DNA from: an uncultured virus (IMG/VR IMGVR_UViG_3300027851_001141)
Lineage: Duplodnaviria > Heunggongvirae > Uroviricota > Caudoviricetes
DNA: 64,000 nucleotides
IMG/VR virus record: IMGVR_UViG_3300027851_001141
Strand: one strand, 5' to 3'
Shown: one piece after another, positions 5,225 to 64,000 of the stretch
How positions within the stretch are numbered: position 1 is the first letter of the stretch
How the letters are laid out: each line of letters starts with the position of its first letter
Notes under the pieces: generated by a model
Seen by the model: only the letters and a program-made list of their open reading frames with translations
Told to the model about the DNA's origin: nothing
The model's database searches: none
Translations under genes and position numbers: made by a program

Positions 5225-5443
5225 TTACTTATGCCTGAATGTGATTATTCCGTGCGTCAAGTCATAAGGAGAAAGGGATACCTGAACATCATCTCCCAAG
5301 ATAACCCTTATACGATTTTTTCGCATCTTGCCGCATAGCCTGGCGTTAACGTCCGCCCCGTTTTCCAATTTAACGGTAAACTGACCTCCAGGGTGAACGT
5401 CAGATATCTTTCCGTTCAATTGTACGTGTGAGTCCTTCGGCAT
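5225..5443 (-). CDS. infA: Translation initiation factor IF-1
   Basis: 72 aa; F.VKLENG..V.A..GKMRKNRIRVILGD.V.V.LSPYDLT.G.I.FR canonical IF-1. Confidence 0.96.
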   Translation of the reverse strand: MPKDSHVQLNGKISDVHPGGQFTVKLENGADVNARLCGKMRKNRIRVILGDDVQVSLSPYDLTHGIITFRHK

Positions 5444-16580: not shown

Positions 16581-17349
16581 CCGTGAACTCCGCTACAAAA
16601 GAATAGGGTAGAAGTAACTTTTCTGACCTAAGCAGGGATTCGTCTGAGATGTCGCATCCCCAAAAATATCTTCCATTTTTAAGGGAGGCCTCTCCGGTGT
16701 TTCCTGACCCCATAAAGGGGTCCATCACAAGTTCTCCCCTGGAAGTCGAGTTCATGACCAATACTTCCAACAGATCCACTGGCTTTTCTGTGGGGTAAGA
16801 GTCTGAACTTCGTATCCTCTTATGGGAAAGTATGTCAGAAATGGATCTGCTGTTGAGTTGACGAGTTCCCTTGAAGCTTTTTCCCTCTTGTGGGACCCAC
16901 TTGGACGTACCCTTTTCGAAGAAAAGGATGAACTCGTACTGGGATCGATAGTGATAACCCATCCCCATTGCTTCCTTATTCCACACCAATCGCTTCCAGC
17001 AATAGAAGCCAGCTTCCATGCCTGCCTTTTTGAGCAGATCTGAAGTCTCGTCGTCGCAAAACATGTAGCAGTGTGTCTTGGGTTTTAGAACCCTGTACAG
17101 TTCCCTGCATAGCTCCGGGAGAACACTGTTGGGTATAACCCTGAACCAGTCATTGCTAGACGACTTGCTCTTGGAAAGCCTGGTAGTCGTGCCTTTGGAC
17201 CTATGCTTCTCTAAGGAGGCATAGGGTATATCCGTGATAACACAGTCGGCCACCCCCTCGTCCAGGGATTTAAGCCAAAGAAGGGCGTCTCCCTGCGCCA
17301 GGTAGAGCCCTCCTTCCAACTCATTTACCTTAGTCTTAGGACGAGTCAT
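16573..17349 (-). CDS. DNA methyltransferase, N4-C/N6-A beta class
   Basis: Motif IV variant TDIPY, YPTEKP, motif I DPFMGSG. Confidence 0.88.
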   Translation of the reverse strand: MTRPKTKVNELEGGLYLAQGDALLWLKSLDEGVADCVITDIPYASLEKHRSKGTTTRLSKSKSSSNDWFRVIPNSVLPELCRELYRVLKPKTHCYMFCDDETSDLLKKAGMEAGFYCWKRLVWNKEAMGMGYHYRSQYEFILFFEKGTSKWVPQEGKSFKGTRQLNSRSISDILSHKRIRSSDSYPTEKPVDLLEVLVMNSTSRGELVMDPFMGSGNTGEASLKNGRYFWGCDISDESLLRSEKLLLPYSFVAEFTDE

Positions 17350-17765
17350 AGCAGGGGCAATCCTGCTGTAACTTGGTCCACGTTTTCCGATAGAGCGGGC
17401 CCTACCGCCACTACTGTGTTCGTTTCGACACCCTTAAACTCAGTGGCTCCAGAATCGGCGATAAGAGCACAAGGAAGACCCAGTGCCAACGCTTTGGCGT
17501 GGATAGAAAGAAGCTCTTCCTCGGAGTTTACGTAGACACATATTTTGGTGAACTTACCTGTGAGCCATTCCCACATAGGACCATGAGGGTCACAGTCTAA
17601 AGTTAATGAGGCTGGTCCTTGAAGTTCTCCGTTTGGGGTGAGAGGAGCCCTCCATACCATTTTGTCTAGAAGAACCTTCATAGAAGCATGAGCACATTGC
17701 GCTGCTATTTTTCCTTTTCTCATGTTCAGGTCTTTCCTGACCACAAGAACTTGTTTCGTACTCAC
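17346..17765 (-). CDS. Peptidyl-tRNA hydrolase, PTH2 family
   Basis: KQVLVVRKDLNMRKGKIAAQCAHA, KICV, DSGATEF, AVGP. Confidence 0.93.
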   Translation of the reverse strand: MSTKQVLVVRKDLNMRKGKIAAQCAHASMKVLLDKMVWRAPLTPNGELQGPASLTLDCDPHGPMWEWLTGKFTKICVYVNSEEELLSIHAKALALGLPCALIADSGATEFKGVETNTVVAVGPALSENVDQVTAGLPLL

Positions 17766-36878: not shown

Positions 36879-37472
36879 TCATACGTCTTCCTCTTTGAGT
36901 TCCTTATCTGCCGAGAAAAGCTCCAATCCGTATCCGTCAGACGACACAAAGACAAGCCCTGTTGCGCTTCTGCGAATGGCCCATATGGGTCCGTCGCTAT
37001 AACAGTGCTCCCCAGGTCCGAACTTACTCCACTTTTCATGGCCTTTTGCAATATTTCGCCAAGAAAGAAGATGTTCTCTGCTCTCGGAGTATGTGAAGTG
37101 ATTATTTTCTACAAACCACCAGCAGTCTGTGCGATCCTCTACCCACCAAGAACCGAGAACAACTGCCTCCCCTTGAGCGTGACGCACTTCCCCGTCAGGA
37201 AGAGGAAGAGCGGACACCCAGTTGTTGTCGTTTTCCTCTTCTGTTTTCCCAGGAGAAACCAACTCCCAATCGGTGGCTTTAATATCGTTCACCCTAAATT
37301 CGTAAGACAGTGGGCTGAATCTTCCACACAACCCACCGTCAGGAGCAACGAATTGTATGATTTCATCGCCCTCTAGATCGTGACTTAAGTATAGGCGACT
37401 TGCTTCCGCCCAACTTTTTCTCCTTATGACCCCGCCCGTAGTTAGATAGGGAAGTACATCTTCTAAACGCAT
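36879..37472 (-). CDS. DUF2829/Tad2-like N-terminal domain protein
   Basis: GGVIRRKSW...DIKATDWELV. Confidence 0.6.
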   Translation of the reverse strand: MRLEDVLPYLTTGGVIRRKSWAEASRLYLSHDLEGDEIIQFVAPDGGLCGRFSPLSYEFRVNDIKATDWELVSPGKTEEENDNNWVSALPLPDGEVRHAQGEAVVLGSWWVEDRTDCWWFVENNHFTYSESREHLLSWRNIAKGHEKWSKFGPGEHCYSDGPIWAIRRSATGLVFVSSDGYGLELFSADKELKEEDV

Positions 37473-40072: not shown

Positions 40073-40531
40073 TCACTTCGAACCCAGAGAAAGAGAGTCT
40101 TTCTTCTTTTGCTCGTCAATCATAGCCTGTAGGTCAAACGCGAGGCGTCCTAGAGACTCAAGTCCCTCTTCGGATAGAATCTGATAACCGATTATCTTGG
40201 CCTTGTCTTCAATCTGACGTGCGGTCATTTTGGTGGCGCACATACCTCTGCAGCACCACAAGAGGTTGTTGCTGGACTGGAGGAAGTACACAATGTGTTT
40301 GTAGGAACTGTCGTTATCGCACGAAATGTACGTGGTTTCTTCTACCTCTTCCCAATCTTCCGCAAGCATATTGCTCAGACTCATTATGTAAGGTTGAATC
40401 TGACCCACAGTTGTCACTTCCATGATATCTCTGGCATCATGAGACAACATAAGATGCGTTCTGGTGGGCCAGATTTTTCTGCGGATCTTATATCCATAGA
40501 GTAACTTCTTTAACGCGGCTTCGATTTTCAT
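40073..40531 (-). CDS. DUF2829/Tad2-like protein (paralog of 44353-44835)
   Basis: AALKKL..G.KIRR..W...MLAEDWEEV. Confidence 0.65.
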   Translation of the reverse strand: MKIEAALKKLLYGYKIRRKIWPTRTHLMLSHDARDIMEVTTVGQIQPYIMSLSNMLAEDWEEVEETTYISCDNDSSYKHIVYFLQSSNNLLWCCRGMCATKMTARQIEDKAKIIGYQILSEEGLESLGRLAFDLQAMIDEQKKKDSLSLGSK

Positions 40532-44352: not shown

Positions 44353-44835
44353 TCACTTCGCGCCTGAGGAAAGAGAGTCTCTCTTCTTCTGTTCTTCGAT
44401 CATGACTTTTACGTCAAAAGGAAGTCTAGTAAGAGAACCAAGCGTGTCCTCCGTCATCGTGCTGTATCCAGCGATACGTATTCGTTCTTTGATTTGATAG
44501 ATGGGCATTTTAGTAGCGCACATAAAGCGACAGCACCACAAAAGAGCCCCCGCGTCTTGCAGGAATTTTACCACATACTTGTATGCGTTGTCATGGTCGC
44601 ACTCGATGTATGCGGTTTCTTCTACTTCTTCCCAGTCTTCAGCGCACAGGGCGTCCATCTTGATCTTATACGGATGCTGCTGGTCCACCCCGTCAGACTC
44701 CATAAGAGTCTGGCCATCGTGATACAGGGTGAGATACACTTCGGCAGGCCAAGATATACGTCGAATCTTAGATCCTGACTTGAGCTTTTTTAGGGCGGCT
44801 TCGATTTTCATGTCTGATCCATCAGTAGAATTCAA
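44353..44835 (-). CDS. DUF2829/Tad2-like protein (paralog of 40073-40531)
   Basis: MKIEAALKKL..G.KIRR..W..AEDWEEVEET..LWCCR.MCATKM shared. Confidence 0.65.
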   Translation of the reverse strand: MNSTDGSDMKIEAALKKLKSGSKIRRISWPAEVYLTLYHDGQTLMESDGVDQQHPYKIKMDALCAEDWEEVEETAYIECDHDNAYKYVVKFLQDAGALLWCCRFMCATKMPIYQIKERIRIAGYSTMTEDTLGSLTRLPFDVKVMIEEQKKRDSLSSGAK

Positions 44836-61212: not shown

Positions 61213-62638
61213 CTATTCCTCCTGGGCCTTGAGGAAGGCCTGGTTCACGCGGTCCAAGATTTCCTCTTCGGTGTCTCCCGAATCCCAGCCAGGACAAGGT
61301 TCGCAACGGTCGGCATCCACCAACTTGAGAATGAAATCTCTGGCGTCGGCGTCGAGCGTGGTTCCTACCGAAGCGTACACCACAGTGTTGCCACGAAAGA
61401 AAACCCACAAGTCGTGCTCTGGTTCCGCTCTCGAAACCTCTTGGGGAAGGACACCATCGATGTAGTGCCAGTCCGTGATGACTCCGTTCCTTTGAAGGTT
61501 TTCAGAGAGAGCCTCACTCACGAGGTCTTCCGGTGCCTGCTCCTCTTCGATCTCGAAGAGAATCGAAACGTTTGCTCTGTAGGTTACCTTGGCCATTTCA
61601 CGCTCCGTGAGCCTGCTCGACCTGGCAGGTTTGCTCTCCCTTGGAAAGCTCTTTGCAGATCCAGTAGCACCTTCCGTAGTCGCATTCCTCGGAAGCGATC
61701 ACCGAAACTCCGGTGATGTTGGCGATCTGCGCCGCGAAAAGAATCGAGATCGGATGCTTGTTCACCCAATCCGTTCCTTGACAGTCGGGATGTTCTCGAA
61801 GGACTTTGAGAGCCTTCTCGAAGGAGTAGATGACTCCGCTCAAGTTGCTCGCACTCTGCACGTCCAGAGCGGCCTTCGCCGCCTCTTGCAAGGTCTTCAT
61901 GATCATTCTCCTTGTGGTTGCTGAAACCAGAACTCTTGAGGCAGGGGCTCACCCGTGTAAATGTCCCACAGCCATTCTCCGTCCATGCCTCCCTTGCAGA
62001 TTCGTACGAGTCCGTACTCGTCCACGGGGATCTCCTCTTTCGCACACCTGCTCTCGAAGAGCTGGTCGGCGTCCCGGCGGGAGTCGGCCTGAAAATAGTA
62101 GCCGTGACTCCCGTCGTTGTGCTCGTACATGAAAGTGTACTTCATGATTCACCTCACATATGACGTGCAAGCGCCAAGGCCGACGCCCGACGCCAATGCA
62201 ACGACGCCCGTCTCTCCCAAAGAAAGGTCACGGCCGCAATCAGCTCTTGGCGGATTTCGTCCGAGCAACTGATACGCTCACACACAAGTGCCAGTTCGAC
62301 GTGGAGTGTCTCAGCCTCTGCGCGGTTGACGATATCAGCGGCTAGGCGGGAGATAGTCAGAGTGGAGAGCAGCATAGTGTGTTCGTAGGTGAAGGTGTAC
62401 TTCATGGTCAGAACCGATCGAAAGCGTCGAGAGCACGGAACACGTCTCCAATGTCGCTTCGCGTTACGACCTCGTTCCCGATGCAGAAGCCTCCGACGTT
62501 TCCATCCATTTCCGTGTCGGAAAGAACGCGGCCACAGAAGTCTCTGGCACTGAAAGCCAGGTTGGCACCGAACGTCCCGTTCGTGACGTAGTAGCCGTGA
62601 ATGGAACCGATGCGAGTGTTGGGGTTGATGACGATCAT
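61213..62638 (-). CDS. Operon of five small hypothetical proteins (61213-61596, 61598-61906, 61903-62145, 62154-62405, 62408-62638)
   Basis: Abutting ORFs downstream of the promoter motif at 62657; two begin MKYTF.YEH. Confidence 0.6.
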
Positions 62639-63149
62639 TGTTTCCTCCTGGCCTTTACTATGTTGAGGGTTCGTCTTTCCTTAAACGAGACAAGGCCCTT
62701 TCGGGCCGAGTCTCAGTCTTCGTGGTGAGTGAAGCCGAAGGTACCCACCTTGTTCCCGTTCGCATCCATGACGGGGAGGTCTTCGATGGCCCTGGCTGGA
62801 AGAGAGGTCATTTTCTCCACGATCTTTTCGAGAGACTCGATGATGTGGCGCTTGTAGCGCATGGCATCGTTGCCCATCGTGATCTCGACCTTGAACTTCA
62901 TGACTTCAACTCCATTTCTTCCACGTAGTAGTAGAATCGTTGGTGGTTTCGGGTGTCGGGGTGATTCGTGAGAGGGTGCCCACCGAAAAGCTTTTCCCCG
63001 TCCTCGTCGCAAGCCTTCTGTGCCGCTTCGTAGGTGAGGAACGCGCCCAGATAGGTGACGAAATTTGTCGGGGTGCTTCTCGGTCTTGGTCGCAACGAAG
63101 ACTTGGCGACAAGGCTCCGGCTCTGCCTCGGTCCCTTCGAGAAGGGACG

Positions 63150-63422
63150 TCACCATGCTCTGGATTCCGCGTACCAATTCATGAGAATGGCGGTGAGGTG
63201 TCCGTGAACGTCATAGATGGGATCGAGAAGGTCACCGTTTTCGTTGGTGACCTTCGTGATCTCCAGCACTTCGACGAGAGCCTTTCTCGCCTCGGGCCCG
63301 AAGATCGAGCCTGTCCAGAACTCGCCTTTCGCCTCGGCTCGTTCCTTGCTCTGTTCCAGAGTGAAGTCGATGGTCGCGATGACCCTCTCGATTTCTTTGC
63401 GAATGTCCTTGGGCTTGGTCAT
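63150..63422 (-). CDS. Small hypothetical protein
   Basis: AAGGA RBS and ATG at 63422, downstream of the tRNA-like RNA. Confidence 0.6.
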   Translation of the reverse strand: MTKPKDIRKEIERVIATIDFTLEQSKERAEAKGEFWTGSIFGPEARKALVEVLEITKVTNENGDLLDPIYDVHGHLTAILMNWYAESRAW

Positions 63423-63449
63423 GATTATTTTCCTTTCCTTTTGGAACAC

Positions 63450-63580
63450 TGGCCCCCTGGGATGGACTTGAACCACCACTTTCCTTACCTCGCATCGAAA
63501 GTTGCAGCTAACGATGCGAGACTGTGCTCTGCGTCTGCAAACACTTCGCACGGACGTTCTGCCAATTAAACTACCAGGGG
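63450..63580 (-). ncRNA. 131-nt tRNA-like RNA with canonical acceptor, D and T arms and CCA; anticodon arm replaced by two hairpins
   Basis: CCCCTGG/CCAGGGG-G-CCA; TA; GTTT-AATTGGCA-GAAC; GGTGG-TTCAAGT-CCATC. Confidence 0.8.
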
Positions 63581-63655
63581 ATAGGTGAAGCCTCATGGCC
63601 TCACCGTTTAGTATGAGCAGGGTTGCTCAATCCAACACGTCTTCCTCCAAGATCA

Positions 63656-63985
63656 TCAGTCTAGACAGTAGGAAAGTTTTGCCTTGACCTCTCGGCACAA
63701 CTCGAAGGGGTTGTCCTCCCAGCCTCCTGTGTCGTACTCGGTGCTGCACGGATAATCGTGCTCAGCCCCCACGAGAAGGTGGTCATTCTCGAAATCCTCC
63801 AACTTGGAGTAGAGGTCTTCGATTTCGTGGTCGAACTTGGACCACTTGGCGTAGAGGAACAAGAAGAGAACCCCCTGCTCGTGCTCGTACACCTCGTTTG
63901 CTTCCTTGAGGACCGGGTGATTACGCAACTCGTCCAGGGCTCGGCCCTTTTTGATTGCCAACCCAACGTCAGTTCGCGTTGACAT
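63656..63985 (-). CDS. Hypothetical protein
   Basis: 109 aa with AGGAG RBS. Confidence 0.6.
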   Translation of the reverse strand: MSTRTDVGLAIKKGRALDELRNHPVLKEANEVYEHEQGVLFLFLYAKWSKFDHEIEDLYSKLEDFENDHLLVGAEHDYPCSTEYDTGGWEDNPFELCREVKAKLSYCLD

Positions 63986-64000
63986 TCAAACTCCTTGAGG

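Follow-up and report, generated by a model that had tools for sequence, protein, structure and literature searches.

Does a phage gene with a complete tRNA body, in which two hairpins stand where the anticodon arm belongs, encode a tRNA that has yet to be spliced, or an RNA made for some other job? This question is raised by a 131-nt element on the minus strand of a 64,000-nt stretch of DNA (the window) from an uncultured virus, IMG/VR record IMGVR_UViG_3300027851_001141. The window is part of a large phage that is far from any cultured one, and its helicase is at most 27% identical to the helicases of Erwinia jumbo phages. Among the products encoded in the window are PTH2, IF-1, three Tad2-like proteins, an RlaP-type nucleotidyltransferase and a protein resembling 3′-5′ exoribonucleases. 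Genes of this kind suggest that the phage invests in translation, tRNA ends and counter-defence. An earlier note, made from the letters of the window, had named a phage SerRS-like enzyme among the possible partners of the RNA. We could find no such enzyme: no aminoacyl-tRNA synthetase family, SerRS included, was hit by any of 124 window ORF queries against Pfam, and the two largest unassigned ORFs matched nothing in NCBIfam and one of them nothing in the PDB sequences. Nothing in the window points to a binding partner, a target or a charging enzyme for the RNA. An antisense role towards the window itself was also considered and dropped, as the 14-nt loop of hairpin 2 has 9 antisense matches in it against 5.1 expected, which is not above chance.

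The features of the element and its surroundings are collected in Table 1. When read directly on the minus strand, the coordinates that the earlier note had given for the RNA were all correct. The element matches the tRNA model RF00005 with 40.1 bits, against a gathering cut-off of 29, over 63453–63580 and model positions 1–71 (E-value 2.9e-07 in a 351-nt search, 5.2e-05 when the whole window is searched). It has the 7-bp acceptor stem, a D arm with G18 and G19, and a T arm with a UUCRA loop. U8-A9 joins the acceptor stem to the D arm, and the nucleotides of the elbow are all canonical: U8, A14, A15/U48, G18, G19, G53-C61 and the U54-A58 T loop. In the alignment, the first 3 bp of the anticodon stem are followed by an insert of 67 nt. 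The full 5-bp anticodon stem, the 7-nt loop, U33 and purine 37 are absent, and the 3 bp are all that the RF00005 alignment contains of this arm. Following UCC, the order is hairpin 1, AGU, hairpin 2, GUAA, GGA, a 4-nt variable loop and the T arm. As not a single nucleotide separates C29 of the 3-bp stem from hairpin 1, the hairpin would stack on this stem as a long rod. The loops of both hairpins contain UGCA, which is self-complementary. The hairpin-2 loop can also be drawn as a 7-nt CUGCAAC, which is the tRNA-Cys(GCA) loop of a comparator described below (L096); as a hint that an anticodon-like loop may be displayed, this is only a lead.

Table 1. Positions of the element, its parts, its neighbours and the genes referred to in the text. 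Positions are those of the window unless the related contig G002 is named.
Feature	Position	Strand	Basis or remark
tRNA-shaped RNA gene, 131 nt, encoded CCA	63450..63580	minus	RF00005 match, fold and direct reading
Acceptor stem CCCCUGG/CCAGGGG, perfect 7 bp	63574-63580 with 63454-63460	minus	
Discriminator G73	63453	minus	
Encoded CCA	63450-63452	minus	
D arm GUUU-AAUUGGCA-GAAC, then G26	63556..63571	minus	Aligned to RF00005 D arm
T arm GGUGG-UUCAAGU-CCAUC	63461..63477	minus	RF00005 alignment
3-bp stem UCC/GGA	63552-63554 with 63482-63484	minus	
Hairpin 1: GUGC, GAA/AGA internal loop, GUGUU-UGCA-GACGC, GCAC; 28 nt	63524..63551	minus	Minimum-energy fold
Hairpin 2: perfect 9-bp stem CUCGCAUCG/CGAUGCGAG, 14-nt loop UUAGCUGCAACUUU; 32 nt	63489..63520	minus	
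Promoter-like motif AACCCTGCTCATACTAA	63608..63624	minus	Match to AACCCNNNNCATANTAA; 27 nt upstream of the element
Leader hairpin, then UAU	63584..63605	minus	Fold -16.7 kcal/mol; between promoter motif and 5′ end of the element
90-codon ORF, no known family, RBS GGAAAGGAAAAUAAUC before ATG 63422	63150..63422	minus	Downstream of the element
IF-1, PTH2 and three Tad2-like (Thoeris anti-defence) genes	5225-5443 (-), 17346-17765 (-), 36879-37472, 40073-40531, 44353-44835 (-)		
RNA-ligase loci L279 and L280 of G002	G002:139647-140105, 147098-147700; also 99832-100326		

The minimum-energy fold of the 131 nt (-48.0 kcal/mol) consists of the acceptor, D and T arms and both hairpins. Alignment and fold thus bear out the earlier description of a tRNA body in which the anticodon arm has been replaced. 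The fold has a z-score of -2.56, with 5 of 200 shuffles folding equally well, and the insert folded alone reaches -2.94, with 1 of 200. The UCC/GGA stem is absent from the fold of lowest energy; with it the energy rises by 0.1 kcal/mol, and it pairs with a probability of 0.34–0.37. Pair probabilities are about 0.47 for hairpin 1 and 0.98 for hairpin 2. In the folding model hairpin 2 is therefore nearly certain and predicted to be very stable, and hairpin 1 and the 3-bp stem are plausible and thermodynamically only moderately favoured.

Standard finders had been expected to miss the element, and they did. Default ARAGORN and a gathering-mode Rfam scan skipped it, and their lists for the window contain just three tRNAs, all ordinary (Gln-CUG, Gln-UUG and Lys-UUU); the RF00005 match to the element surfaced with laxer filters. 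With E-values up to 10, an Rfam search of 63350–63700 gave no match to tmRNA, YrlA (RF02553) or Y RNA, a search of the element gave none to an intron, hammerhead, twister, pistol or hatchet family, and ARAGORN in tmRNA mode returned nothing. A group I intron would be expected to have about 200 nt or more with a group I core; the insert is 67 nt long and has no Rfam match. When introns were allowed (option -i), ARAGORN proposed a tRNA-Glu(UUC). We rejected this model, in which the intron would have 47 nt: the stem that it forces is weak, with two G.U pairs among its 4 bp, and the variable region, at 12 nt, is long. The true tRNA-Glu of the related phage G002 is unlike the body of the element. 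The best matches to the body are tRNA-Gln(CUG) and tRNA-Phe(GAA) of one unrelated contig.

Inserts of this length are not in themselves unusual. We scanned viral contigs and metagenome contigs with a degenerate pattern, which in the viral contigs consisted of a D loop of the element's type, a gap of 66–96 nt and a T loop of the element's type. Among the matches listed with flanks from the viral contigs, a perfect 7-bp acceptor stem closes 41 of 80 loci. The metagenome scan listed 80 of 119 matches with flanks, including 12 closed acceptor stems, none related to the element. Taken together, the matches listed from both scans include 67 distinct elements in which the acceptor stem is closed and a D stem is present. 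Removal of one stretch of 34–70 nt turned 41 of these 67 listed elements into canonical tRNAs, against 1.5% of shuffled controls, where canonical means a score of at least 6 out of 6.5 for a 5-bp stem, a 7-nt loop, U33 and purine 37; the sample represents one type of D loop and T loop among the matches listed. Most inserts of these comparators interrupt either the loop or the 5′ strand of the anticodon stem, the latter behind position 28 or 29; 37/38 is not their only site. Long inserts are thus common in phage tRNA genes, and most such genes are real tRNAs with an intron-like insert. The element had previously been regarded as unique. This view has to be given up, as insert-bearing tRNA genes are frequent in phage contigs, and an intron-type origin becomes a serious rival.

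Passages of Devoto et al. (2019; PMC6784885) describe tRNAs of Lak megaphages with “enigmatic introns.” As far as these passages go, the Lak-type genes and the element are alike in having a short, structured insert in the anticodon region and in being missed by default bacterial finders. The Rfam ribozyme and intron families had no match in the inserts of 20 comparator loci, and sub-threshold YrlA hits were seen on other long phage tRNA genes. In many of the inserts (L062, L111, L045, L084, L117, L114 and others) a hairpin is followed by A(C/U)AGCA. AGCA was found in 12 of 27 acceptor-distinct resolved elements among the matches listed, against 3.1 expected; going by its sequence, it could be a recognition site for an agent that removes the insert. 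The hairpin-2 loop of the element (UAGCUGCAAC) resembles a stretch of L111, UAGCAGCAAU. Three metagenome contigs (L184, L197 and L224) carry a tRNA-like family of 110–112 nt with closed acceptor stems, CCA encoded in one of the three, and an extra region of 34–36 nt; they resolve to no canonical anticodon arm and score 0.5–3. Five further loci (L157, L267, L219, L142 and L090) have inserts that do not resolve and that contain a nested T-arm-like hairpin with a GGTTCGA-type loop. These hairpins recall the Lak introns, some of which, in the wording of the same passages, “may encode a tRNA” (PMC6784885).

The element behaves differently from the insert-bearing genes. The best removal of a single stretch gives an anticodon-arm score of 4.5 out of 6.5, with C at position 33 in place of U33, and 9.4% of shuffles of the same stretch reach this score. 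None of the single deletions, and none of the two-deletion combinations or other hairpin boundaries tried by hand, gives 5 bp and U33. Exact excision of both hairpins leaves UCC-AGUGUAA-GGA, with a 7-nt loop, a 3-bp stem and G33. The reading that no canonical anticodon arm can be recovered is supported. Whereas one removal restores the arm in 41 of the 67 comparators among the matches listed, none does so here, and the insert is a two-hairpin junction in place of the anticodon arm, unlike those of insert-bearing tRNA genes. From established tRNA geometry, such an RNA probably cannot place an anticodon in the decoding centre, and so would read no codon.

A search with DnaB gave four related IMG/VR contigs with 89, 76, 75 and 66% identity. 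One of them, G002 (DnaB 76% identical), is complete, with 392 kb and 48 tRNA hits. BLAST, Rfam and ARAGORN found no counterpart of the element in the syntenic region of G002, which is the only one of the four relatives to span that region, and no tRNA of the four has a like acceptor end. The tRNA gene array of G002 contains RNA-ligase (PF09414) genes, of which two score above the family cut-off and a third scores below it. RtcB is absent from the four relatives. G002 also has two tRNA-like stretches below the tRNA cut-off, at 370275–370364 and 120275–120397, both on the minus strand (L036 and L037; 19.2 and 23.7 bits). A normal tRNA-Glu is the neighbour of one of them, in the early region; the other, in the tRNA array, has a body like that of tRNA-Trp, a loop of 14 nt and a long extra region, and its acceptor strands do not pair.

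Searches beyond these relatives gave the same picture. We found no match by blastn with 63300–64000 in 50,697 phage records, no homologue with exact and degenerate patterns of the element in viral contigs and genome contigs, and none in a protein-anchored search with the 90-codon ORF; with a nearby ORF the latter gave 0 loci. BLAST against all loci from L040 on returned words of the tRNA body of at most 21 nt, and the insert matched nothing. A covariance model built from the element alone was run on 100 of about 280 loci; the three alignments shown cover the tRNA body and skip the hairpins. The homologues found are near-identical metagenome copies and one diverged variant, of which 30 letters are visible.

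The stretch with the element occurs in sequencing runs of fresh water, wastewater, sludge and soil, in 13 studies. We compared four runs with the window in the form of assembled contigs, from which presence can be read but absence cannot. One of these runs (X2), an independent one of wastewater DNA, has a contig covering 63385–63809 that is identical over the element and has its sole difference at 63694. A metatranscriptome (X18) contains a contig that is colinear over 63366–63522, that is, over the 3′ part of the element and the start of the ORF, and that may even be DNA. The diverged variant comes from sludge (X3); it is exact over 63420–63475 and then diverges, its first 30 diverged letters being visible. 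In the variant the T stem GGUGG becomes GAUGG, by which a G.U pair becomes A.U with the pairing kept. It retains UGCAAC of the hairpin-2 loop and the outer stem strand UGCGAGG; the 4-nt GNRA-type joint changes from GUAA to GGAA, the inner stem of hairpin 2 changes from CGA to CAU, and the linkers are altered. In its hairpin 2, CAUUGCGAG are the letters that a compensating 5′ strand would complement. X3 has no cover over 63529–63565, and the X3 and X18 contigs both end at 63522. Joints that skip a hairpin were seen in none of the four runs, whose contigs speak for presence and not for absence. Two X3 contigs swap parts of the ORF region (63232–63441 of the window, for 122 and 235 other letters) and keep the 3′ part of the element. 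As these contigs replace the downstream sequence, the element appears to lie at the edge of a variable region.

The earlier note had credited the element with its own AACCC promoter motif at 63610, followed by a leader hairpin. AACCC alone is not enriched in the window (130 matches against 132 expected). The claim holds for the longer AACCCNNNNCATANTAA, of the form AACCC-N4-CATANTA(A/G), which occurs 20 times in the window when one mismatch is allowed (0.17 expected), each time on the minus strand; the copy at the element occupies 63608–63624, rather than lying at 63610. This promoter-like motif is specific to the phage and stands before small genes; its sites span 11904–63624, and 18 of the 20 are found at 50.9–63.6 kb. 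By eye, the other 19 copies stand about 16–50 nt before an RBS and start codon, and at the element the distance from the motif to the ATG is about 185 nt. The leader hairpin is real, and similar 5′ hairpins occur at the motif copies 52070 and 50903, so that it is not specific to the element. In G002, words like the promoter motif (AACCCCGCCGATAGTAA, AACCCGAGGAATAATA) precede genes at about 370.0–370.2 kb.

Between the element and the 90-codon ORF are 27 nt, which hold the RBS. We found no terminator-like site on the minus strand over 62600–64000. As there is none between the two, the element would head a transcript that runs into the ORF, which, judged from this arrangement, is probably co-transcribed with it. 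The ORF has no family match, and the protein atlas also returned nothing. We rejected a coding N-terminal extension of this ORF: the 148-codon frame from ATG 63596 is open in the window, but the X3 variant has an in-frame UGA, and the RBS precedes ATG 63422 and not the upstream ATG. Since the variant carries UGA in the open frame of the window, the element is not coding.

With canonical tRNA (RF00005) the element shares the acceptor, D and T arms, the elbow, the discriminator and CCA; it differs in its length of 131 nt and in lacking the 5-bp anticodon stem and the 7-nt U33 loop. With tmRNA it has in common a tRNA-like acceptor and T arm, and an anticodon arm replaced by a helix leading to other modules. 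However, tmRNA has no D stem and has a G3.U70 pair and a tag frame, none of which is true of the element (C3-G70). YrlA and Y RNA (RF02553) resemble our reading of the element as non-decoding tRNA mimics in which another helix replaces the anticodon stem; the element differs in having no RF02553 match. YrlA has a permuted topology, ending in the replacing (“anticodon”-side) helix with the acceptor closed, and is said, after work by Chen et al. from 2014, to occur in phages too. T4 species 1 RNA (rnaC), a stable phage RNA in a tRNA cluster, is likewise phage-encoded, of about 130–140 nt, and has a tRNA-like T arm and an acceptor-like end, but its extra part is a 5′ extension and not a replaced anticodon arm. 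In our searches rnaC (2909–3047 of L278) hit only the tRNA-Sec model, with 17.5 bits and E = 0.76, and folded far better than its shuffles (z-score -4.57). That the element is the same kind of RNA as T4 rnaC or rnaD was rejected; rnaC fails the tRNA model, and the 701-nt region with the element has no BLAST match in the phage collection, which includes T4. The engineered tRNA scaffold works in the same way as we envisage for the element, with a structured RNA in place of the anticodon arm, though it is a laboratory design and the element is natural. Ponchon and Dardel reportedly found in 2007 that an RNA in this place is processed and stabilised by the cell as a tRNA.

If the element is instead a precursor tRNA, a nuclease and an RNA ligase would remove two hairpin mini-introns of 28 and 32 nt and leave a decoding tRNA. 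As the majority of phage tRNA genes with inserts are true tRNAs whose insert resembles an intron (41 of the 67 comparators among the matches listed), the prior favours an intron, and the “enigmatic introns” in the cited passages on Lak megaphages (PMC6784885) point the same way. Hairpin 1 begins just after position 29, the site of many single inserts, and the 7-nt loop left by excision ends in UGUAA like Thr(UGU) loops. The RNA-ligase genes of G002, two above and one below the cut-off, lie inside a tRNA array. The spliced product would, however, have an anticodon stem of only 3 bp and G instead of U at position 33, which no single and no hand-tried double deletion improves to 5 bp and U33. By our estimate, chance would leave 7 nt that look like a loop with one fault about one time in four. 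The X3 variant has G at what would be position 36, and with it a different anticodon; no hairpin-skipping joint was seen in the contigs of the four runs, which show presence and not absence, and RtcB was not found in the four relatives. On balance, we consider two mini-introns an unlikely explanation.

Two further explanations dispense with a job for the RNA itself, and we think either one improbable. As a cis-acting 5′-UTR module, the element would by its tRNA shape attract RNase P and 3′ enzymes, which would remove the leader from the mRNA that encodes the 90 codons; the stability or translation of this mRNA would be set in this way, and the released RNA would be jobless. This would fit the position of the other 19 motif copies directly before ORFs, the lack of a terminator-like site between element and ORF, and the X18 contig from an RNA library, which is colinear across the 3′ part of the element and the ORF start; the distance to the ATG is about 185 nt here. 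Yet such processing needs an acceptor and a T arm only, and neither a D arm, an elbow nor a 67-nt domain. Moreover, since the X3 contigs swap the ORF region and keep the 3′ part of the element, the element does not seem to be tied to this ORF. Decay of a tRNA gene that an insertion or duplication has broken up and left without function would account for the loss of anticodon function and for an orphan without counterpart in the complete relative, in which degenerate tRNA-like remnants (120275–120397 and 370275–370364) do occur. Against decay stand a body in which every arm and tertiary-contact nucleotide is intact, a promoter motif of its own, and a highly structured insert. The element is also identical across samples of different studies and years, the X3 variant keeps the architecture where it is visible, and the stem word CTCGCATCG of hairpin 2, with 14 matches in the window at no more than one mismatch against 10.7 expected, does not form a family of repeats there. 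Finally, a small tmRNA-like or Y-RNA-like molecule, with a tRNA-like domain and a functional module of known class, is very hard to reconcile with the data and close to refuted. The general layout of a tRNA-like domain with an extension, a short frame from the hairpin-2 loop (GCU GCA ACU UUC GAU GCG AGG UAA) and the sub-threshold YrlA hits on other long phage tRNA genes would agree with it, but ARAGORN in tmRNA mode and Rfam with E-values up to 10 found no tmRNA, YrlA or Y RNA, there is no G3.U70 pair, the short frame is lost in the X3 variant, and YrlA ends at the “anticodon” side.

What was observed is the anatomy of the element, its promoter motif, an anticodon arm that cannot be recovered and the occurrence in several independent samples. 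From this we tentatively favour, without regarding it as established, the reading that the element encodes an RNA in the shape of a tRNA which is processed but does not decode, and for which the tRNA body is a scaffold. The intact body, the promoter of its own, the structured insert and the persistence across samples argue that the element is functional. Several points count against the scaffold: no base pair of either hairpin has covariation support, as no sufficiently diverged homologue was found; the complete relative G002 has no counterpart at the syntenic place; the sole contig from an RNA library (X18) is colinear with the ORF and may even be DNA; thermodynamics favours hairpin 1 and the 3-bp stem only moderately; the other insert-bearing genes set a prior for an intron; and the window gives no hint of a partner, a target or a charging enzyme.

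From the layout of the locus we infer how the RNA would be processed, what would make it stable and what it might bind. Transcription would start from the phage promoter of the element, at the head of a transcript that continues into the small ORF. RNase P, which prefers U at -1, would cleave behind the U that the UAU leader has at this position, and trimming at the 3′ end would expose the encoded CCA. This would yield an RNA of 131 nt whose tRNA elbow and acceptor end are complete, and in which the 3-bp stem and hairpin 1 form a rod about 15 layers long and hairpin 2 branches from the 3′ side. Without a 7-nt U33 loop at the right distance, it would not read codons. The tRNA body would serve as a scaffold that provides stability and access to the tRNA processing and binding machinery, and the two UGCA-bearing hairpins may be the working part; they would bind a protein or another RNA and could, for instance, act as sponge or decoy towards a tRNA-handling factor. 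A more specific version, which we hold to be possible but rather doubtful, is a natural “tRNA scaffold” in which the tRNA body is no more than a handle for processing and stability, and whose domain with two UGCA loops, one drawn as the tRNA-Cys-like CUGCAAC, captures a tRNA factor of host or phage, such as a tRNA-targeting defence nuclease or a synthetase. We found no description of a phage RNA effector of this kind in the literature.

Phage tRNA genes with inserts have been called enigmatic since 2019, and the element is an extreme case among them, in which the body is perfect and no tRNA can be recovered. To our knowledge, no route for the removal of phage tRNA inserts is known in bacteria. 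If the element is spliced after all, this would require a new kind of tRNA splicing with two excisions. If it gives rise to a stable RNA, phages would make tRNA-shaped RNAs for jobs other than decoding, which would bear on defences that target tRNAs, and the element would be a natural precedent for the tRNA scaffolds that are used to express RNAs.
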